Assembly: GCA_045640185.1 (NCBI GenBank)
Contig: JAZUEN010000045.1
Coordinates: forward strand, 1,088 to 65,087
Direction: 5' to 3'
Length of the DNA stretch: 64,000 bases
Source of the DNA: Bacteroidales bacterium
GTDB lineage: Bacteria; Bacteroidota; Bacteroidia; Bacteroidales; SZUA-534
The position numbers and the translations under genes were made by a program. The stretch's first letter is position 1. Every line of letters begins with the position of its first letter. Below, piece after piece: positions 46,965 through 57,349 of the stretch. Under the pieces are notes generated by a model. That model was given only the letters and a program-made list of their open reading frames with translations, was not told the origin of the DNA and made no database searches.

Positions 46965-47630
46965 CTAAACACTCAAGAATTTCATAAAGGAATTGTAGCG
47001 GTCCTCAAGCATCGAGTCAATTTCCCTGTCGCTTGAGTAAACCTGCACAATGTTGTAATTGTATCGTTCCAACGTCTGAATCACTGGCGACACATCCGTG
47101 CGGTTCAACTTGATTGTCACATAGATATGGTCGGGCAGGCTGTGATTATGCACATACAGGCTGACGATTTTAGTGTCGTTGCCCTCGACAATCTGCGCAA
47201 TCTGGCTCAACGAGTAGTCTCTGATGTACAAATCGAGCACAATGATTGCGCCTGCTGTCACCGACGACGACAAGAGAGACAATTTGCCCGAAAGGTCAGG
47301 CAAGGTTATGACGCCCATATACTTGTCCTCGACATTGAGCACAGGAATCACGGTTATTCTGTTTTTCGACAGCAAATCAAGAATCTCAAGAATATGCTGG
47401 CTTGAATGGACAAATGGTCGGGCAAAGACGAACTGCTGTGCGACAATGGAAGCATCGGCATCGGGCAGATTGTAAATCTCCGACTCCGAAATCAGGCCGA
47501 GATATTCGCCATTATCGACAATGGGAAGGTGCGACACCTTGAACTCGTCCATCCATTCAAGGGCCATATTTCCCGAATCGGTTCTGTTTATTGCGGGGAT
47601 AACATTCGATAGCAATTCTTCGGCGTTCAT
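46965..47630 (-). CDS. CBS-domain protein (AcuB-like)
   Basis: HLPIVDNGEYLGLISE and IPVL...YMGVIT CBS pair plus a C-terminal ACT-like domain. Confidence 0.85.
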   Translation of the reverse strand: MNAEELLSNVIPAINRTDSGNMALEWMDEFKVSHLPIVDNGEYLGLISESEIYNLPDADASIVAQQFVFARPFVHSSQHILEILDLLSKNRITVIPVLNVEDKYMGVITLPDLSGKLSLLSSSVTAGAIIVLDLYIRDYSLSQIAQIVEGNDTKIVSLYVHNHSLPDHIYVTIKLNRTDVSPVIQTLERYNYNIVQVYSSDREIDSMLEDRYNSFMKFLSV

Positions 47631-47759
47631 CAGTGCTTCTCTATTGGGCGTAAATTTACGAAAAAGTATTTTAGGGGGATTCTATAAAATACCCTATTAT
47701 AAAATTTCGCAGAAAAGATTGTTCATCAATATTTTGGACATTATACAAGACAAAATCCC

Positions 47760-49949
47760 TTAATTGCCCAATTCCAATTGGTTCTTGACCAAATTATAAT
47801 AAGCGCCTCGTTTTTCGACCAATTCTGTATGTGTTCCAACTTCCAATACCTTTCCTTCGCCTAACACGATAATTTGGTCTGCATTTTTAACAGTACTTAG
47901 ACGATGTGCAACAACTATAGTCGTACGACCTTCGTAAAACTCTGATAAATTCTCAACAATAGCACGTTCGTTTTCAGCGTCAAGGGCATTTGTTGCTTCA
48001 TCAAGGAACAAAAAGCTTGGATTTTTATAAACCGCACGAGCTATAAGTATGCGCTGTTTTTGCCCCTGGCTCAAACCAATTCCATCTTGTCCAATTTTTG
48101 TATCATACCCTAATGGCAATTGTAAAATAAAATTTTTTATGTTGGCTATTTCAGACGCAATAGACAACCGATTCTCATCGACAGGACCATCTCCGACCGC
48201 TATATTTCTGGTTATTGATTCGGAAAAAATGACACCATCCTGCATAACAACGCCACATTGACGGCGCCACCACTTTTTGCTGTATTCATTTATATCAACT
48301 CCATCTACCTTGACTGCACCTTCTTGTACCTTGTAATAGCCTAACAGAAGTTTTATAAGTGTTGTCTTGCCACTACCGCTTGCGCCAACAATGGCCGTAA
48401 CCTTGCCATGCGGAATGATAAGACTGACATTCTCAATAGTTTTTGTCGGACTATGCGGATCGTACTTGAAACTGACATTTTCAAACCTTACATCTGGCTT
48501 GTCAGACTGAAATCGTGATATTTGACTGGAATTTGCGTCTTCATTGTCAACAATGTGAATTTCATTAATTCGTTCAAGACTTATTTTTACATCCTGCAAT
48601 GCATAGAAGAAACCCATAAGTTCATCGATTGGACTATTTAGTTGACCTATAATATATTGCACCGCCAACATCGCACCTAACGTCAATTGTCCATTGATGA
48701 CAGCCGTAGCGGACAGCACTGTGATTATCATATTTTTGACCTCGTTGATGAATACAGAGCCAACTTCTTGTGTTTGGTTGATCTTCAATCTCTTCATCTG
48801 AGCTCCAAACAAATCGACCTGAACATTCTTCCACTCTTGACGACGGCGACGTTCGCAATCTTGCAACTTTATTTCCTGCATTGCAGTTATGAATTGATAA
48901 GTCTTATTGGCATTTTCAGATTGCCGTTCAAACAATTCATAATCAATTACTCTACGTTTATTCAAAAACAAGGCTATCCATCCGCCATACATCAAGCCAA
49001 ACAACAGAAAAATAATGAATATCAATCTATTATATATACAAAGCACTACACCAAACACTACAAAGCTTATCATTGAGAACATTACGCTTAGTGTCTGATT
49101 TGTAAGGAACTTCTCCACTCTGCTGTGGTCCTCCATTCGTTGCAACAAGTCTCCCAACAATTTTGTGTCGAAAAACGACATAGGAAGTTTAAGCAACTTA
49201 ATGAAGAAATCGCTGACTAGCGAAATATTAATGCGCATACTGATATGCAACAATATCCATCGACGGAAGAAATCGACTGCAGTTCGGCTCAAAACCAAAA
49301 CAAATTGGCCAAGCAATATGAGCCACACAAGTTTGACACTGTTGCGCTCAATACCGACATCAACAACAGCCTGCGTAAGAAACGGCAATATTAATTGCAA
49401 GACACTGCCAATTGCCAAGCTGACAATTATCCTACCAAAATATTTCTTGTAGCGTTTGAAATAGCCAAATAAGAATTTAAAATCATGTTGTTCGGGTGCC
49501 TTGCGAAGCTCCGAATCGAAAAATTTTGGAGTTGTCTCCAAAAACATTGCCACTCCGCATTTCTCTCCTTCCACTTCGCAACTCAGCCACGATTTCGAAA
49601 ATTCAGAATCACTGAGCACAAGCAATCCTTTGCCTGGGTCGGCAATATAGTATTTATGCTTTCGGACTTTATAGAGCACTACAAAATGGTTCTGATTCCA
49701 ATGCAGGATTGCTGGCAAAGGTGCCTCTGACAATTCCTTTAGCCCAACCTTTCCTGCGACTGGATTAAATCCCAATTTTGTAGATGCTTCACTTATGCCA
49801 AGCAAACTAACGCCCTCGGTTGTTGCAAAGCAAATCTTTGACAGTTCTGCAAGCGAATACTCACGACCATAGTATTTGCACACCATTTGCAGGCAAGCAA
49901 TACCACATTGCATTGAATCGTGCTGTATGGTTAGTGGAAAACGGAACAT
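47760..49949 (-). CDS. C39 peptidase-containing ABC transporter (PCAT)
   Basis: QHDSMQCG, HWNQNHFVV, IADP, TM domain, GASGSGKT, LSQGQKQR, LDEAT. Likely ATG at 49949. Confidence 0.93.
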   Translation of the reverse strand: MFRFPLTIQHDSMQCGIACLQMVCKYYGREYSLAELSKICFATTEGVSLLGISEASTKLGFNPVAGKVGLKELSEAPLPAILHWNQNHFVVLYKVRKHKYYIADPGKGLLVLSDSEFSKSWLSCEVEGEKCGVAMFLETTPKFFDSELRKAPEQHDFKFLFGYFKRYKKYFGRIIVSLAIGSVLQLILPFLTQAVVDVGIERNSVKLVWLILLGQFVLVLSRTAVDFFRRWILLHISMRINISLVSDFFIKLLKLPMSFFDTKLLGDLLQRMEDHSRVEKFLTNQTLSVMFSMISFVVFGVVLCIYNRLIFIIFLLFGLMYGGWIALFLNKRRVIDYELFERQSENANKTYQFITAMQEIKLQDCERRRRQEWKNVQVDLFGAQMKRLKINQTQEVGSVFINEVKNMIITVLSATAVINGQLTLGAMLAVQYIIGQLNSPIDELMGFFYALQDVKISLERINEIHIVDNEDANSSQISRFQSDKPDVRFENVSFKYDPHSPTKTIENVSLIIPHGKVTAIVGASGSGKTTLIKLLLGYYKVQEGAVKVDGVDINEYSKKWWRRQCGVVMQDGVIFSESITRNIAVGDGPVDENRLSIASEIANIKNFILQLPLGYDTKIGQDGIGLSQGQKQRILIARAVYKNPSFLFLDEATNALDAENERAIVENLSEFYEGRTTIVVAHRLSTVKNADQIIVLGEGKVLEVGTHTELVEKRGAYYNLVKNQLELGN

Positions 49950-49993
49950 TATTGCCACATTTGCAGACAACAAAAAAATAAAAACAACTTACA

Positions 49994-51208
49994 TTAATTT
50001 ACATCTTCCATCATTTCACTGAAATCAACATCAGGATACTTATCCTTAAGAGACTCTATGATTTTTCTGATTTTCTTTGAATGATATTTAGTGGCAAAGT
50101 TTTTGTCATGCTTTATTTCATCATACCTCCATTCGTTCAAATCTTCGAAACTTAGTGAAATTGGTCTAAACATTGTAATATCGCCAAAAGAACCGAAGCA
50201 ATTCACAACATCATTTTTTGCCACATAACGACTTTTCTTGCCATCAAGTGCAGTATGTGTGAAATAACACTCATTGTAAAAATGAGACAAATGATATTTG
50301 CCATTTTGCTTGGAAAATTGCAACCTCGTAACGGATGAATCTACGGAATGATATTCCACACTTTTCGAAAAACGACCAATATCAATAGTAACATCTTTCT
50401 GCACCAACAAGCCTTCATCAACGACACCGTACTCAATATACACAATCGCAAAATCCTTCTTGTCAATTTTCACAATTCCACTATACGGATGTTTTGAATC
50501 GACCACGTTTGGTCGAAAACAGATACAATAGCACACGCTATCACCAACATCTTTTGAATATGTGTAACAATCTGTATTTTCAATAAAATCCAAATTGCCA
50601 ATATATAACTGACTAATAAGATTGACAGGGAACGCATCGCTTTTGTACGAAACTGTGTAATCCACCGTTTTTCGGTTATTCCAAAAGGCATCATAATCGA
50701 ACAATCTGTACTCACTTGGCTGTTTCTTAACATAACCTTTTATTGAACCAATGACATTGCCTTCAAAAACTGAAAGTATAGCACTGTCAGATTCAATAAG
50801 ATGATGTACCGACAGCAAGTACCTTTTCAAAGCCAAAGGGTAATTTATTGATAAAATTTCTCTTGCGCGCTTAATCAACTGTGCTGGATTATCGTAATGC
50901 ACCATTACTTCATCTAAAGTTACGCAATACGGCGCAAGAGTTACTAATGTGTCAAGTTTTGATACAGCACATATGAATGCATCATAACCAACATAAGAAA
51001 TCACAACAGTATCATCTGCAAGCAACACACTGTCAAACTCAAAGTATCCATCTTCGTCTGTAATTGTGCCTACATTATTTTTCACAAAAAAGACATTTGC
51101 AAAAGGCAATGGCACGCTATCATTTTTTGAGACACACCTTCCCTCAAAATGTTGAGCATTCAGTCCGTAACTGATGCTTAACAATACTACAATTATAAAA
51201 AATCGCAT
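49994..51208 (-). CDS. Carboxypeptidase-like regulatory domain-containing secreted protein
   Basis: Signal peptide from ATG 51208; PLPFANV...GTITDEDGYF...ISYVGY...LDEV. The longer ORF start runs into the repeat. Confidence 0.8.
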   Translation of the reverse strand: MRFFIIVVLLSISYGLNAQHFEGRCVSKNDSVPLPFANVFFVKNNVGTITDEDGYFEFDSVLLADDTVVISYVGYDAFICAVSKLDTLVTLAPYCVTLDEVMVHYDNPAQLIKRAREILSINYPLALKRYLLSVHHLIESDSAILSVFEGNVIGSIKGYVKKQPSEYRLFDYDAFWNNRKTVDYTVSYKSDAFPVNLISQLYIGNLDFIENTDCYTYSKDVGDSVCYCICFRPNVVDSKHPYSGIVKIDKKDFAIVYIEYGVVDEGLLVQKDVTIDIGRFSKSVEYHSVDSSVTRLQFSKQNGKYHLSHFYNECYFTHTALDGKKSRYVAKNDVVNCFGSFGDITMFRPISLSFEDLNEWRYDEIKHDKNFATKYHSKKIRKIIESLKDKYPDVDFSEMMEDVN

Positions 51209-51267
51209 TCTTTTTGTTTTGCCAAAATCAATGATGTTCCTTTCCCTTACTACTATCAAAAATACAA

Positions 51268-51359
51268 AAAAACGCCACTCCAAATATTTGAAGTGGCGCT
51301 GTGATATCGGAATAAATCCGTACGATTTACTTCTGAAGCACATCCGACCGCTACGAGTT
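51268..51359. repeat. Left direct repeat: copy of htpG 3' end plus terminator
   Basis: 51268-51340 matches 52972-53044 at 68/73 nt; gapped similarity continues for ~18 nt. Confidence 0.92.
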
Positions 51360-51423
51360 ATCTAAAGAACTGACATCATTGCAAAAAACATCATTAGTGA
51401 TTTTTGAAATGTGCAGTTGCAAC

Positions 51424-52782
51424 TCAAAAAATGCAGTTTTCTTCCGACGGTTCAGTTTGGTCGATACACATAACATAGTATATTGGCATATAGATAACCT
51501 TACCCACAGTACGCACTTCCCTATCGTTATCAAGGACAATGGCTGTAGGAATGTCATACTCATCATTTTCAAGAAAGCGGTCCAAAGCCCGATGCCGTGC
51601 ATAGTCCTTGCCCGATTTCACTTCAACAGGAAGGACTGTCGTATCTGACACATTGTTTATCAAATAGTCAACTTCGCCTTTTGTCGCATTATCGTAATAG
51701 AATAGTTCGTGTCCGTGAGCCTTCAGTTCCTGTGCCACTACACTCTCGTATACCGAACCCAAGTTTACGCTCAACTCATCTTTCATAACTGGTGCAATGT
51801 TGCTTCCGTACAATCGGCCTGTAAGCAAGCCCACGTCGTTCAAATATAGTTTCAGCAAGTTCTTGTGCACCGACTCCGAGAGTGGGTATTTGGGATTAGA
51901 TATGGCGTGCACATCGAGAGATATGCCTGAAGATATGAGATATTCAAACTCTTCAGCAAACCATTCGAACCTATCTCCTTTCTTGTCACGAATATCCTTT
52001 GCCACAATGCGTTTTTTCTTGTTTTCCATTTGAGACACTATCATATCGTAGATACGACGGACCAACAGTTTCTTGCTCGACTCGTTTTCATACTTTGTGG
52101 CATCCTCCTTATACAAGTTACGAATGGCATCCTGAACTTTCCGCACCTTTACGATGTTGTGAGTATCAATATATGTGTTGACTGCGTCAGGCAACCCACC
52201 GACCAACAGATATTTCTTGAACTCACTCAATAGATTATTGTGCTGTGCCTCCGTAAGCGAGACTTTACGTTTGTAGCAATCACGAACATGGTTGAGAGCG
52301 TCTTCCCCCCAACCCTCCGCAATCAACCATTCCTCAAAGTCCAACTGGTTCATTTGCATGCGAATTATGCTCCCGATAGGTATCGATGTCGTATTGTGTA
52401 ACGCGATGCCAAGCAGACTTCCACTGGCAATGTAAGTGAACTTTCCCTCTTCGCGGAAAAATTTCAGCATAGTCAAATATTGTGGATAGTGCTGTATTTC
52501 GTCAAGAAAAACAAGCGTATCAGACTTGTCGCCCAACTTTCCGCCTGCCACCATACTCAGGGCCATATAGAACTCGCTCAAATCATGTATGTCGCGAAAC
52601 AGGCCTTTCGTCTCATCATCTTTGACAAAATTCACCTCTACAAAGTTTTTGAAGAGTCGCTTGCCTACTTCCCGAATGATATACGACTTGCCAATCTGCC
52701 TTGCACCTTCAACCACTAATATCTTGTCGCTACTTGAACGCAGAAACAACTCAATATCAGCACTTATTTTTCTGTAAAGCAT
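51424..52782 (-). CDS. AAA+ ATPase (AAA_14-like) with DUF4143/PD-(D/E)XK C-terminal domain
   Basis: GARQIGKS, LVFLDEIQ, ASGSLLG, GGLPDAV, KLYLNDVGLL, EVDY...PVEVKSG. Confidence 0.9.
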   Translation of the reverse strand: MLYRKISADIELFLRSSSDKILVVEGARQIGKSYIIREVGKRLFKNFVEVNFVKDDETKGLFRDIHDLSEFYMALSMVAGGKLGDKSDTLVFLDEIQHYPQYLTMLKFFREEGKFTYIASGSLLGIALHNTTSIPIGSIIRMQMNQLDFEEWLIAEGWGEDALNHVRDCYKRKVSLTEAQHNNLLSEFKKYLLVGGLPDAVNTYIDTHNIVKVRKVQDAIRNLYKEDATKYENESSKKLLVRRIYDMIVSQMENKKKRIVAKDIRDKKGDRFEWFAEEFEYLISSGISLDVHAISNPKYPLSESVHKNLLKLYLNDVGLLTGRLYGSNIAPVMKDELSVNLGSVYESVVAQELKAHGHELFYYDNATKGEVDYLINNVSDTTVLPVEVKSGKDYARHRALDRFLENDEYDIPTAIVLDNDREVRTVGKVIYMPIYYVMCIDQTEPSEENCIF

Positions 52783-52785
52783 ATT

Positions 52786-52931
52786 AAAATTACACTTTTA
52801 TTAAAATTTTTCGCAAGCAAAATTACACTTTTTTAAGTTTTCAAACATCCCAAAATTACACTTTTTCGAATTTTTAATACTGCAAAAATTACACTTTTTG
52901 AAGTTTTCACATACTGAAAAATTACACTTTT
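52786..52931. repeat. Five perfect AAAATTACACTTTT 14-mers at exact 33-bp period
   Basis: Copies start at 52786, 52819, 52852, 52885 and 52918, with four different 19-bp spacers. Confidence 0.95.
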
Positions 52932-52971
52932 TGAAAATCACCCACATTCAACGTCCGATTTTGCATAAAAC

Positions 52972-53002
52972 AAAAACGCCACTCCAAGCATTTGGAGTGG
53001 CG
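52972..53002 (-). terminator. htpG terminator (part of right direct repeat 52972-53060)
   Basis: cgccactccaa / ttggagtggcg stem with a T tract on the minus strand. Confidence 0.85.
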
Positions 53003-53030
53003 CTGTGATATCGGAATAAATCCGAACGAT

Positions 53031-55085
53031 TTATTTCTGAAGCAATTCGACGCTACGGTTTACGAATACGTTCAAGTCTTCGCCCTTGAGCATATTGTTT
53101 GCAAGCAAAGCCAAATCGACCAACTGCTTTACAAGTGGCGTTGCCTTGCCGAACTCGCGCAACTTGGCGTCTTTTTGGTCGCGCAATGTGTTGATTTGCT
53201 TTTCGACGTCGGCAATCTGGTCCTTCAGCGACTGCGGGATCTCCTCTTCCTTCTTGTCCTTCTTTTGAGCCTCAAGGTCAGATTTCTGTTTGCTTAGCGG
53301 TTCAATCTGGGCATCAAACTCGGCCAACTGCGAGCCTACGCCTGCCTTTTCGGCATCGAGCACCTTCTGCACAAGCGGATGCGCCGTGTTTACGACAAGG
53401 TTGAAACTGTCGGGCATATCGCCGTAATAGTTCATTCCGCTCATTGCGGCAGTGTCCTTCATACGGCGCATAAACTCGTTTTGCGTTATCATCAAAGGCT
53501 TGCCCTCGGCGCCCAAGTCTTCAAACTCGACAATGAAGTAGCCTTTGTCTGGCGTAACTGAATTGAACACCTGGATAAGATTGTCGCGATCGGCCTGCTC
53601 CAACTTGCTTGCTGGCTCATCGTCCTTCTGAATCAGGCGGTTGATGACGTCGGCATCGACACGGGCGAAACGAGTCTTCTCAAGTTTCTGCTCGAGTTTG
53701 CCAATCATATGCATATCAAGTTGTCCGTCAAGCAGAAGCACATCGTAGCCCTTGGCCTTCGCGCTCTCGATGTACGAATATTGCGAATCCTTATCGGTTG
53801 CGTACAGATAAACCTTCGTATCGTTCTTGTCGGTTTGGTTTGTCTTGACCAAAGTTTCATATTCTTCGAGCGTAAAGTATTTATCTTCAATATTCTTAAA
53901 CAGATAGAACTTAACGGCGCGGTCGTAGAACTTCTCATCGGTGAGCATTCCGTACTCGATGAACAACTTGAGATTGTCCCACTTGCTCTCGAACTGTGCG
54001 CGGTCGGTCTTGAAGATCTCCTCCAAGCGGTCGGCGACCTTCTTTGTGATGTGGCTCGAAATCTTCTTGACATTTGAATCGGCCTGCAGATAACTGCGCG
54101 ACACGTTCAATGGGATGTCAGGCGAGTCGATTACGCCGTGCAAAAGTGTCAGGAATTCTGGCACAATGCCCTCAACACTGTCGGTGACAAACACCTGATT
54201 GCAGTACAGTTGAATCTTATTTTTCTGTATCTCGATGTTATTCTTGATTTTAGGGAAATACAGGATACCTGTAAGGTTGAACGGGTAATCGACGTTCAGG
54301 TGAATGTTGAACAACGGGTCTTCGAGCCCTGGATAGAGTTCGTGATAGAAGTTCATATAGTCTTCGTCCTTCAGGTCGGCAGGCTTGCGCGTCCACGCTG
54401 GTGTGGCATTGTTGATGATTTTGTCCTTATCGGTGTCAACCATCTTCTTGTCCTTGTCGCTCCACTCCTGCACCTTGCCGAATGCGATATCAACTGGCAG
54501 GAACTTGCAGTATTTGGTCAGCAACTGGTTGATACGGCTGTCTTCAAGGAACTCTTCGTTCTCGCTGTCGATATGCATAATGATATCGGTACCGAAATCG
54601 GATTTGGTGGTCTCTTCAAGAGTGAACTCTGGACTGCCGTCGCAACTCCATTTGATAGCCTTTGAGCCTTCCTTGTACGATTTTGTGATGATGTCGACAC
54701 GCTCCGAAACCATAAATGCGCTGTAGAATCCCAAGCCGAAATGGCCGATTATTGCGCCAATGTTGTCCTTGTACTTGTCAAGGAACTCGCCTGCGCTTGA
54801 GAATGCTATCTGATTGATATACTTGTCAACTTCTTCTTCAGTCATACCGATACCGTGGTCTGACACAACAATTGTCTTATTGCCCTTGTTGACCGATACG
54901 CGGACTGTCTTGTCGCCCAACTCGCCTTTGTAGTCGCCTTTGGCAGAAACGGCTATCATTTTTTGTGTTGCGTCGACTGCGTTTGCTACAATCTCACGCA
55001 AGAAAATCTCGTGGTCGGAATAAAGGAACTTTTTGATTACGGGGAAGATATTCTCGCTCGTAACACCTATTTTACCTGTTTGCAT
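53031..55085 (-). CDS. htpG: Hsp90 chaperone HtpG
   Basis: FLREIVANAVDA, DHGIGMT, IGHFGLGFYSAF, GVIDSPDIPLNVSRS. Confidence 0.96.
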   Translation of the reverse strand: MQTGKIGVTSENIFPVIKKFLYSDHEIFLREIVANAVDATQKMIAVSAKGDYKGELGDKTVRVSVNKGNKTIVVSDHGIGMTEEEVDKYINQIAFSSAGEFLDKYKDNIGAIIGHFGLGFYSAFMVSERVDIITKSYKEGSKAIKWSCDGSPEFTLEETTKSDFGTDIIMHIDSENEEFLEDSRINQLLTKYCKFLPVDIAFGKVQEWSDKDKKMVDTDKDKIINNATPAWTRKPADLKDEDYMNFYHELYPGLEDPLFNIHLNVDYPFNLTGILYFPKIKNNIEIQKNKIQLYCNQVFVTDSVEGIVPEFLTLLHGVIDSPDIPLNVSRSYLQADSNVKKISSHITKKVADRLEEIFKTDRAQFESKWDNLKLFIEYGMLTDEKFYDRAVKFYLFKNIEDKYFTLEEYETLVKTNQTDKNDTKVYLYATDKDSQYSYIESAKAKGYDVLLLDGQLDMHMIGKLEQKLEKTRFARVDADVINRLIQKDDEPASKLEQADRDNLIQVFNSVTPDKGYFIVEFEDLGAEGKPLMITQNEFMRRMKDTAAMSGMNYYGDMPDSFNLVVNTAHPLVQKVLDAEKAGVGSQLAEFDAQIEPLSKQKSDLEAQKKDKKEEEIPQSLKDQIADVEKQINTLRDQKDAKLREFGKATPLVKQLVDLALLANNMLKGEDLNVFVNRSVELLQK

Positions 55086-55291
55086 AGTATATAAAGTTTA
55101 GTTATTTTTTAAATGACAGCCAAACATACGCAAACAGCGTGCCACGGGCAACGAGCGGAAAGTTTGGCACAAATGTCACAGTCGGTGCTGACAAAAAGGC
55201 GGATTTTGACGGGAAATCACAAGTAAACAAAAAACCTTTTTATTGGTCAAAAACATTCAGCGCACAGCAACTTAAAACAACGAGTCTCCCA

Positions 55292-56164
55292 TCAACGGCG
55301 TTTACCCGCCTTCGGCCTCTGATATGTGACATTGGACTGGTAGAGCCACATTCCATCTTCGAACTTAAGCGCGTCATACGACATGTCAGGGCCCAAAAAC
55401 ATGGGATTGCCGGTACTCCGCTCGCCGAAATCGGTAAGGTGGTCGAACACAATCATATCCAGATTTGCGTCGTACTGCACCATCATAGTGACACGCTTGC
55501 TGAATTCGAATATTAAGCGTTTGGCCTTCTTGCGATCGTACTTGATCATCAGCTTGCCGAATTTAGGCTGTCCCTTTTCGGTAAACACCAATGGCTCGAC
55601 AATCTTCTTTGAGGTATATAGGCCGTTGCCGTCCCAGCCGAGCAATGTGTACACAATTCCATCGGGGCCTTTTTTCTCAACAATGCTGTAATACAAAGAG
55701 CCGTACCAATTTTGTGGCGACAATGTCTGGTTTTCCAAATTCGGCGTCTTTTCCAGCGCATCGCTGTTGTCAACCAGATTGTACAGGCGCAGTTTTTTTG
55801 CCGACCTGTCGTCGTACTGCAAAAAGCCGTAATAATGGTAGTCGCCAGCGTCACCGACAGTGAACCATGTGAGCAGGCGCAACCTGCCATCGCTGGATTT
55901 CACAATGCTGACATCGTTTTTTAGGCTGTCGAATGGATATTCAAACGAACCTTCATTTTTCAGCACGCCGCCTAGCATTTCATGCAGCAGATGAGCCAAG
56001 CTGTCCTGAATGGCGTCCTTGAATCGGCTTTCCGACAACTTTGCGGCAATTGCCGACATCTGCTGTTCGGCATTGACAAACGTGGTGTCGGTAACAGGCG
56101 ACGACATTGCCAATGGCGACCATAGCAATGACAGAAACAATATCAATCGGTGTGTGTTGCTCAT
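55292..56164 (-). CDS. Conserved hypothetical secreted protein
   Basis: Signal peptide after ATG 56164; WYGSLYY, YTLLGWDG, IVFDHL, GPDMSYDA. Confidence 0.75.
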   Translation of the reverse strand: MSNTHRLILFLSLLWSPLAMSSPVTDTTFVNAEQQMSAIAAKLSESRFKDAIQDSLAHLLHEMLGGVLKNEGSFEYPFDSLKNDVSIVKSSDGRLRLLTWFTVGDAGDYHYYGFLQYDDRSAKKLRLYNLVDNSDALEKTPNLENQTLSPQNWYGSLYYSIVEKKGPDGIVYTLLGWDGNGLYTSKKIVEPLVFTEKGQPKFGKLMIKYDRKKAKRLIFEFSKRVTMMVQYDANLDMIVFDHLTDFGERSTGNPMFLGPDMSYDALKFEDGMWLYQSNVTYQRPKAGKRR

Positions 56165-56264
56165 AACATTTGCAAAACGCAAATTTTCGAAAAAGATTGT
56201 TCTACGAAACAGGAAGAGCCCACAAATTGCAGGCTCACCCTATATATGATTCTGAAACGACGAC

Positions 56265-56978
56265 CTATTTTGATGAAATCGTGTTCAGGTCCTCCATAAG
56301 CGTATCGCGATACGACTTGCCAATTGGGACAAGTTTTGGACCTGTCTCGGTACGCATCACCACGTTGCATTCCTCGATATAGTCTATCCGGCTGACATTC
56401 ACTATATAGGAACGATGCACACGTTTAAATTTAGATAGAGGCAGCTTACTCTCTATCGCCTTCATTGTATAGTGGATTGTGAATTTTTCCTTGTACGTAT
56501 TGACTGTGACGTAGTTTTCGAGCGCCTCAACCCAAAGTATGTCCTCATACTTGATCCTGACCAAAGTGGAATTTTTCTTTTTGATGAAAATCTCATCAGG
56601 GAAGCTCGATGCGCTCTCCCTCTCCTGATACAGGGATAGCGCCTTGTTGACAGCCTTGAAGAAACGCTGCAGTGAAACAGGCTTCAGCAAATAGTCAACA
56701 ACATCATATTCGTAGGACTCGATGGCATATTTTTCCTGGCCCGAAACAATGATAATCATTGGCTTGACATCCAACGTATTGATGAAATCAAGGCCATTCA
56801 TTTCCGGCATTTCCATATCCAGGAACACCAAATCAATTGTATCTGGCAAGTCGAAAGCCTTAAAGGCTGCGACTGGGCTGTCATACGAACCCAATAAGTT
56901 CAGTGCGTCAGATTTTTCGGTCAAACCTTCCAAAACCTTACGACTCAGCAAATCGTCATCTATAATTATGCAATTCAT
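56265..56978 (-). CDS. LytTR family response regulator
   Basis: IIDDD, FLDMEMP, DYLLKP, RVHRSYIVN. Likely ATG at 56978. Confidence 0.93.
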   Translation of the reverse strand: MNCIIIDDDLLSRKVLEGLTEKSDALNLLGSYDSPVAAFKAFDLPDTIDLVFLDMEMPEMNGLDFINTLDVKPMIIIVSGQEKYAIESYEYDVVDYLLKPVSLQRFFKAVNKALSLYQERESASSFPDEIFIKKKNSTLVRIKYEDILWVEALENYVTVNTYKEKFTIHYTMKAIESKLPLSKFKRVHRSYIVNVSRIDYIEECNVVMRTETGPKLVPIGKSYRDTLMEDLNTISSK

Positions 56979-57349
56979 TACAGAAAGATTAAGGGGCATT
57001 CCTTAAATTCCCCGATTAAATAATTAAAAAATAACAAGTTGTTCCGCCACTCATTGTGTAAACTTTGTTTTTGTAGGCATCTTGCTGATTTTCACCCAAC
57101 AGCAGCATCCAAACCATTCTTGCGAAAAAAACATGGTCTGCCTAACAAGGCATACAAAATCACCACAAGCAATTTATAGAACTCCTTTTGATTTCACGAG
57201 AATTATTTTACAAATATAAATCAATTAAGTAAATGATAAATAGGTTACAGCACGAAAATCAACTTTCATCAACATTTTTATTTCATTTAACCACAAAACA
57301 CACACGTCTGCAATAGTTTTAATAAATTGCAAGACAATTTTGTCTTGCT

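Follow-up and report, generated by a model that had tools for sequence, protein, structure and literature searches.

The DNA analysed here (the window) is a 64,000-nt stretch from a Bacteroidales bacterium (genome G000, assembly GCA_045640185.1; window contig JAZUEN010000045.1, C45 below), and it carries the end of htpG together with its terminator twice. Enclosed by the copies is a single-gene cassette of 1.63 kb that travels horizontally; it consists of a leader, an array of 33-bp-spaced repeats with a -7 box in the penultimate repeat, and one ATPase-nuclease gene of the PDC-S01 family. The cassette was probably inserted (we put this at roughly 0.55) by one-sided homologous plus illegitimate recombination that displaced the resident gene end, a route described as homology-facilitated illegitimate recombination (HFIR; PMC3240628). 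Cited papers were available as excerpts, and statements about them apply to those excerpts.

The duplicated htpG end

A repeat search and a direct comparison both gave a direct repeat at 51268-51340 and 52972-53044, with 68 of 73 positions identical and an offset of 1704 nt. It was the sole long repeat pair within 49000-55000. Read on the minus strand, each copy holds the final htpG codons, the TAA, a 30-nt spacer, and then a hairpin (13 pairs, 4-nt loop) that leads into a T run; the final four htpG codons and the stop fall inside the proximal (R) copy. This 73-nt pair had been reported in the original prediction, and its mismatches were found where they had been placed: the Lys codon preceding the TAA (AAG versus AAA, synonymous), two neighbouring bases in the 4-nt loop, and a stem C-G pair changed to U-G. 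The fifth mismatch is a spacer base. Minus-strand terminators were called by a scan in each copy (53004-52975 and 51300-51271), with stems of 13 pairs containing 7 and 6 G-C pairs. Four terminator-like sites were counted in the region versus 1.6 ± 1.4 in shuffled sequence, and the 94-95-nt repeat segments folded at -31.4 and -30.5 kcal/mol. The five differences between the distal (L) and R copies appear to agree with both hairpins having been kept functional, an argument that is weak as statistics. At the distal terminator, an Rfam search gave a PyrG-leader match of 32 bits, below the gathering score of 65, and nothing else.

The duplication is real and no assembly artefact, an objection that had been raised in advance, because an independent metagenome contig (run X16, record 28) spans 51266-53513 unbroken with both copies included. 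The contig of G006, another species of the genus, carries the proximal copy and a remnant of the htpG tail. X16 has single-base deletions at 51341, 51349, 51361 and 51363, with which the distal copy keeps the htpG register for 23 further bases (18/23 match); 10 of the 13 last htpG codons are then identical and the internal stop is absent. The window's own remnant, compared ungapped, gives 4/23 matches and one internal stop. Since the X16 deletions restore the register, the original duplication was about 96 nt long and the joint lay about 12 codons before the htpG stop. This extension past 51340 rests on the X16 indels, because a local-alignment shuffle test of the 16-nt extension was not significant by itself (348 of 1000 shuffles reached the score). 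As had been claimed, one self-contained gene unit was inserted: htpG stays whole because its end and terminator, the R copy, precede the cassette, and the duplicated end also supplies the cassette terminator.

The cassette had further been described as lacking an integrase, and this held. No integrase or recombinase was present among the genes at 46965-56999, about 4 kb around the cassette. The three PF00589 matches in the genome lie on C24, C33 and C84, with none on C45.

The gene htpG was found in all 15 same-genus species searched, with a protein identity of 87-90% in 14. In 14 of the 15, nothing cassette-like lies within 1.5 kb of htpG, and each has its own single terminator. A second htpG tail or terminator was found in 0 of 18 related species within the 459-1390 nt available downstream, a search that excludes nearby duplicates only, as the window's own second copy lies past the 1.5-kb span and was not recovered by it. 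G006 shares window positions 51327-53971 at 98.75% identity, versus 72-89% over the rest of the 20 kb compared. The shared block contains the tail remnant, the cassette, the R copy, for which no difference was listed, and 940 nt of htpG; the filler between cassette and remnant is identical save for a single base inserted after 51382. The break in homology coincides exactly with the remnant's stop codon (51327), after which G006 has a different spacer and terminator and then directly the CBS gene. Because of the identity of 98.75% versus 72-89%, the block of htpG 3′ part, terminator, cassette and remnant was exchanged recently. One crossover would then lie inside the tail remnant of at most 37 nt.

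Contigs from four gut metagenomes of four studies (X1, X16, X10 and X11) join the cassette to htpG at 97-99% identity, and their flanks further left of the cassette either match at 93-96% or differ. The stretch separating the CBS gene from htpG varies. Among the joints listed for these four metagenomes, none skips 51341-52971; with one joint missing from the listing and rare variants lost from contigs, this result does not speak against empty sites or circles. An exact 24-nt pattern from the repeat had 0 matches in the metagenome contigs set. A protein-based scan of that set gave no relative above 86% identity, so conspecific alleles are absent from it. In the empty-site comparison at htpG that had been proposed earlier, 14/15 congeners were without the cassette, and no conspecific empty site appeared in the contigs of the four metagenomes.

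Footprints at other insertion sites

Across Bacteroidales, relatives whose proteins are 61-84% identical stand in unrelated contexts, each with an array. Those of 77-84% identity are in metagenome-assembled genomes (MAGs) labelled Prevotella, Bacteroidaceae, Muribaculaceae, Cryptobacteroides, Limisoma, Lepagella and others. The sequence beside the array and the open reading frame (ORF) differs in nearly all relatives, and two locus pairs share the upstream flank. Cassettes of 94-97.5% nucleotide identity stand at different sites (L052/L054/L151/L053 and L062/L154), and their common part runs from ATG-152 (or -102) to between 10 nt before and 4 nt after the stop codon. Because near-identical cassettes share array and ORF only, the moving unit has a promoter and no terminator. 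Together with the block shared with G006, these relatives in unrelated contexts and near-identical cassettes at different sites uphold the proposal that the unit is mobile. In the excerpts of PMC10782964, COG1373 is among the genes shared nearly identically between gut genera.

Within G000, the cassette query found five other copies of 29-35% identity, too low for recent intragenomic transposition. The cassette gene has a GC content of 0.433, at the 30th percentile of genome windows and no outlier, so composition gives no foreign mark. Two further observations concern the relatives. About 55 nt after the stop codon of L052 is the segment that precedes the array in the 97.5%-identical L151 cassette, an arrangement resembling a circular permutation, such as a circular or tandem intermediate would give. 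Relatives of 55-83% identity are also in MAGs labelled Methanomethylophilaceae, Limiplasma, Lachnospiraceae, Waltera and Oscillibacter (L056, L083, L101, L108 and L112), which may reflect either mis-binning or transfer beyond Bacteroidales.

The flanks of cassettes and of control genes were compared by blastn, and a duplication was called tight when its upstream copy ended no more than 400 nt from the start and its downstream copy began no more than 200 nt from the stop. With 3-kb flanks, any direct repeat was seen at 17/62 loci of the genome contigs set, for which tight ones were not counted, and at 12/59 loci of the metagenome contigs set (tight 11/59). Among G000 genes of 350-560 aa the figure was 21/505 (tight 10/505, one being the htpG cassette). 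With 1-kb flanks, tight duplications were found around 8/57 cassettes and 1/110 neighbouring genes in the genome contigs set, and around 12/53 cassettes and 3/29 neighbouring genes in the metagenome contigs set. The sole tight neighbouring gene in the former set encodes another AAA ATPase. When loci were merged by site, 15 of 83 insertion sites had a tight duplication of 22-234 nt and 78-100% identity, compared with 4/139 neighbouring genes (Fisher p = 2e-4) and 9/504 other G000 genes (p = 3e-8), p values that overstate the enrichment, since related genomes lack independence and core genes make up most of the controls. Two more lie outside this count, namely L065 (772 nt, 99.1%) and L134 (35 nt).

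The duplicated segments are unrelated among the window, L057, L134, L088, L099, L125, L130, L156 and others, and their length is not fixed (22-772 nt). A strong terminator-like hairpin lies in, or makes up, the repeated segment in 6 of the 12 duplications folded. Segments without a hairpin include coding sequence, for example 109 nt of mgtE. At L057 the neighbours of the cassette are a histidine-kinase gene and groEL, and a terminator segment of 59 nt borders it on each side. In the related species G075, whose flanks are 93-94% identical to those of L057 by direct alignment, there is a single terminator with contiguous flanks, which is a clean empty site. The suggestion that homologues elsewhere might also be flanked by target duplications was thus supported, at 15 of 83 sites, and L057 has a single-copy empty site. 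At L099, the 109-nt piece of mgtE 5′ coding sequence is on the far side of the cassette, detached from the insertion point; in a relative, G121, the flanks are 183 nt apart with one mgtE start. For L065 and L130, no empty site was found, as relatives matched one flank only or two flanks on separate contigs. For L134 (G079:C11), the closest relative, G068, is not empty. At L140 (G068:C1), which is the L134 site at 94% identity, an internal deletion of ~1.2 kb has spared just the array and the final ~90 nt of the ATPase gene, and G068 has ~11 kb of extra DNA downstream.

Recombinase or transposase genes were absent among the 41 neighbouring proteins at 10 duplication-bearing loci (0/41). Pfam matches in 31 of the 41 identified ordinary cellular proteins, one of them another AAA ATPase. 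A duplicated gene 3′ end is the classic footprint of site-specific integrative elements, and the 73-nt copies had been read as attL and attR. A tyrosine or serine recombinase acting in trans, as on a cis-mobilisable element (CIME), could have produced them, and besides two Xer-sized PF00589 proteins the genome encodes one of 461 aa on C84. The cassette resembles integrative and cis-mobilisable elements in its direct repeats with the target 3′ end, in the regenerated gene, and, at the related L057 cassette, in the one-copy empty site. It differs from them in lacking an integrase and in having unrelated targets and unrelated duplicated sequences of 22-772 nt. None of the 10 loci examined has a recombinase nearby, and G006 keeps the coding-tail part alone of the distal copy, followed by a different terminator. 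The site-specific att reading fails because the targets are diverse and an integrase is lacking, and action by a recombinase in trans is very improbable.

Equally improbable is that the two copies predate the gene, by tandem duplication or as boundary repeats of a hot spot, or that the cassette is the deletion relic of a larger island. The variable gap between the CBS gene and htpG and the further insertions at the L134 site in G068 speak for such a history. They are countered by the single htpG end in 18 of 18 related species within the 459-1390 nt searched downstream, by the one copy at the L057 empty site, and by the lack of mobile-element genes nearby. The remnant of a larger island, also put forward in the original prediction, fails on the neighbouring proteins at the 10 duplication-bearing loci, none of them a recombinase or transposase.

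In the blind scan of 505 genes of G000, three of the 10 tight genes encode AAA_14/DUF4143 proteins and one a related ATPase_2 protein. The candidate interpretation of the three AAA_14/DUF4143 genes as three target duplications was rejected, as those on C53 and C78 carry the array motif on both sides. In G000, an operator-like motif flanks the ORF on both sides, in the same orientation or palindromic, at the AAA_14/DUF4143 genes C53:93182-94319 (L235) and C78:43809-45084 (L238) and at the ATPase_2/AAA_14 gene C20:78604-80011 (L232). In contrast, the orthologue group of the htpG cassette has its array upstream only.

Routes of insertion

In the favoured route, the incoming DNA would have been composed of the htpG 3′ part, the terminator and the cassette. 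On one side, homologous recombination would have taken place within htpG; on the other, an illegitimate or very-short-homology joint would have formed inside the resident htpG tail. The result would be an insertion-duplication, or '3′-end displacement', in which the L copy was pushed downstream and its hairpin came to terminate the cassette gene. Host recombination machinery, and not a site-specific integrase, would make the insertion, and the finished block would then spread between species by ordinary homologous exchange. The G000/G006 pair shows such exchange of the finished block directly. Insertions with a host terminator on both sides would be expected to survive because the moving unit lacks one of its own.

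Two features that mark HFIR were found at this locus. The anchor was co-transferred, with the htpG 3′ part and the cassette at 98.75% identity between G000 and G006 versus 72-89% elsewhere, and a displaced remnant of the gene end lies downstream (51327-51365), in frame in X16 and decayed in the window. L099 also fits displacement better than a staggered cut because its extra mgtE piece is detached from the insertion point. The proposal that the repeats descend from two functional htpG alleles fits a displacement history, and the differences between L and R can be allelic.

In the excerpts of PMC5361080, a displacement model is given for type VI secretion system (T6SS) and Rhs arrays. The cassette is like Rhs, contact-dependent inhibition (CDI) and Vibrio T6SS arrays in that the anchor is co-transferred and the resident end is left further downstream as a displaced orphan, and in that movement is integrase-free, the finished block moving by ordinary homologous recombination (PMC5361080). 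Unlike in those arrays, the anchor of the cassette is an unrelated housekeeping gene (htpG here; histidine kinase, mgtE and others elsewhere), the module is a stand-alone gene with its own promoter and not an alternative anchor end, and the footprint tracks one gene family over many loci, not one locus. If one-sided homologous recombination is the route, single defence genes can spread through core-gene neighbourhoods without mobile-element marks.

Several points weigh against this route. HFIR was rare in the systems tested in PMC5361080, and no paper on it in Bacteroidales came up, though no search was aimed at one. A cassette-free conspecific strain, whose resident allele could be set beside the L copy, was not found in the metagenome data searched. 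The excess of tight duplications may reflect accessory versus core genes and not the PDC-S01 family, and the site clusters come from related genomes that are not fully independent. In seven cross-site comparisons, the right border of the shared unit lies no more than 10 nt ahead of the stop and no more than 4 nt past it, a narrower range than random illegitimate joints would give and a hint that the element has a defined end. At L057, L134, L125 and L157 the copies are 94-100% alike and directly bracket the insert, and a staggered-cut target duplication would look the same there. The stop-codon border, the near-identical bracketing copies and the strength of the enrichment are poorly explained by recombination of this kind. 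These points leave room for an active role of the invariant nuclease and ATPase, or for a template switch provoked by a hairpin.

Such a template switch is the essence of a copy-choice mechanism, in which a fork stalled at a terminator hairpin switches to cassette DNA, returns upstream of the hairpin and re-copies the target. Strong hairpins inside 6 of the 12 folded duplications, the variable duplication length and the fact that no recombinase is needed agree with it, whereas half of the duplications have no hairpin. We consider copy-choice unlikely.

An autonomous mobile cassette is a slightly less unlikely reading, held tentatively. Here the ATPase-nuclease, bound on its 33-bp array, would cut or capture a target, often a terminator hairpin, so that array plus ORF is inserted with a long staggered cut and repair duplicates the target. 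Near-identical cassettes share array and ORF alone with a right border at the stop codon, and the catalytic residues of nuclease and ATPase are invariant in 61 sequences. The hairpins in half of the folded duplications and the nearly identical copies at L057, L134, L125 and L157 point the same way, as do the extreme abundance of the PDC-S01 family in the excerpts of PMC12988326 and PMC13356809 and the yield of the blind G000 scan (3/10 tight genes AAA_14/DUF4143 plus one ATPase_2). On the other hand, duplication length ranges over 22-772 nt, cassettes of 97% identity have different filler between ORF and duplication, and the duplicated piece at L099 is detached from the insertion point. Moreover, there are no inverted ends and the array is one-sided in this orthologue group, the five other G000 copies are 29-35% identical, and two of the three AAA_14/DUF4143 genes from the scan have array copies on both sides, which are not target duplications. 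Terminal inverted repeats or conserved ends were not seen in the flanks outside array and ORF, which are unconserved, the core being upstream in one orientation. Like these ends, the fixed duplication length and the near-identical copies within one genome that mark a transposon or insertion sequence are absent here.

It is doubtful, though worth stating, that PDC-S01 cassettes form a distinct integrase-free mobile class whose protein assembles on the array and promotes capture beside terminators or gene ends with variable long duplications. If so, one of the most abundant prokaryotic 'defence candidates' would be at least partly a selfish element with new insertion chemistry; and if the encoded nuclease makes the footprint, this would be a new kind of mobile element. 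The cassette resembles integron cassettes as a compact single-ORF unit with a border at the ORF end, frequent border hairpins and many contexts. It differs from them in that no IntI, attI or attC consensus was seen in the flanks read, where no model search was made, in its own promoter and array, and in flanking hairpins that are host terminators differing by site.

The cassette gene, its array and its surroundings

The features of the locus are collected in Table 1.

Table 1. Features of the htpG cassette locus (window coordinates)
Feature	Coordinates	Strand	Source
htpG, 684 aa, intact	53031..55085	-	NCBIfam NF003555 628.9 bits; Pfam HSP90
Proximal (R) copy: working htpG end, stop, spacer, terminator hairpin 52975-53004	52972..53044	-	
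39-nt leader from terminator T run to first array repeat, part of the cassette here	52933..52971	-	
Five repeat copies spaced by 33 bp, putative promoter and operator	52786..52932	-	Repeat search
Cassette gene, 452-aa AAA_14 ATPase + DUF4143 PD-(D/E)XK nuclease	51424..52782	-	Pfam; PADLOC PDC-S01
Filler of ~58 nt, cassette stop codon to displaced htpG tail	51366..51423	-	
Decayed remnant of the last ~12 htpG codons and stop	51327..51365	-	G006/X16 comparison
Distal (L) copy: displaced htpG end, spacer, terminator hairpin 51271-51300, now ending the cassette transcript	51268..51340	-	
Low-GC accessory block next to the cassette, outside it but in the same variable gap	47619..51267	-	

The five copies of the array share a core of ~15 nt, AAAAGTGTAATTTT in gene sense. 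The fourth copy forms a TAnnTTTG -7 box at 52817-52824, which is 42 nt ahead of the ATG; the fifth copy directly adjoins the start codon. TAnnTTTG is the Bacteroides -7 promoter consensus (excerpts of PMC7366714). A census was made over 78 loci with relatives at 61-100% protein identity, the window included. The spacing of the core (AAAGTGTA and flanks) was 33 nt in 166 of 180 intervals, three to six core copies lay within the last 200 nt in 69/78 loci, and a core-embedded GTGTAnnTTTG was present in 73/78. Of 87 TAnnTTTG matches in the last 100 nt, 56 start at -43 to -41 from the ATG. On the gene's strand the core occurred 256 times in 15.6 kb of upstream sequence versus 3 times in 44.6 kb downstream. 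Distant paralogues in the genome and genus have arrays with the same 32-33-bp period and different cores.

The arrangement is consistent with a promoter embedded in an operator array that either the cassette protein itself or a regulator would read. The array is like those of Orc1/Cdc6 and the iterons of plasmid Rep proteins in having phased direct repeats that adjoin the gene of a DNA-associated AAA+ protein. In contrast to these, the structural likeness of the cassette model is low (TM 0.2-0.44). Because the array overlaps the promoter, a role in autoregulation and not in replication is suggested.

The cassette protein matched PF13173 (AAA_14, 9.9e-22) and PF13635 (DUF4143, 1.4e-18), both above cut-offs. 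PADLOC model PDLC04792 (PDC-S01) matched it with E 8.7e-172 over residues 1-447 of 452 on profile positions 1-440, that is, over its full length. Its two-domain architecture is that of PDC-S01 (AAA_14 + DUF4143; COG1373). In 61 aligned sequences of 34-100% identity, Walker A G26/G31/K32, Walker B D94/E95 and the nuclease residues D372, E387 and K389 (motif D372...E387-x-K389) are invariant. The AlphaFold model had a pLDDT of 88.6 and a pTM of 0.90. With the whole model as query, the nearest structures were the archaeal AAA+ ATPases 2qen and 2fna, followed by STAND, ORC/Cdc6, RuvB and MuB chains, all with low TM-scores (0.2-0.44 on the query). A sequence search of the Protein Data Bank (PDB) with the protein gave nothing at E <= 1.

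By family membership, the gene is a putative anti-phage defence candidate. In the excerpts available, validation is pending for most candidates of this kind (PMC12988326), and the family is described by prevalence alone: it is reported to rank fourth among 'defence system' calls in prokaryotes overall and first among single loci in rumen genomes (PMC12988326, PMC13356809). DUF4143 is classed as a PD-(D/E)XK family of unknown function (PMC3424549). Neither an account of PDC-S01 regulation or movement nor mention of a 33-bp promoter/operator array, a compact moving unit or a duplicated-target footprint was found in the excerpts of the literature on DUF4143, PDC-S01 and COG1373. The locus offers handles on both questions: a precisely phased 33-bp array with a promoter inside it, through which autoregulation and DNA binding can be tested, a minimal moving unit bounded by the stop codon, and an integrase-free footprint that duplicates host terminators and gene ends.

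The 39-nt leader and the ~58-nt filler, with adjoining bases, had zero BLAST matches in the genome and the other cassette loci compared. The low-GC block beside the cassette encodes a C39-peptidase bacteriocin-type ABC exporter (47760-49973) and a CarboxypepD_reg-like secreted protein (49994-51208). Its GC of 0.35-0.40 compares with 0.45 for the genome, it is missing in G006, and it appears to be another accessory insertion into this gap. A small variable stretch is present at 55215-55337 in the htpG promoter region, where the X1 and X10 contigs skip 121 nt and X16 diverges from 55215. At L023 (G005:C241, near locus position 2585), four tandem 13-nt units (ACGCATTACTTTT) lie ~120 nt downstream of htpG. 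At L042 (G008:C126), a family member of 34% identity stands between two unrelated small membrane-protein ORFs whose last 20 residues and stop are exactly alike and are followed by a similar repeat element, that is, a duplicated gene end on different bodies.

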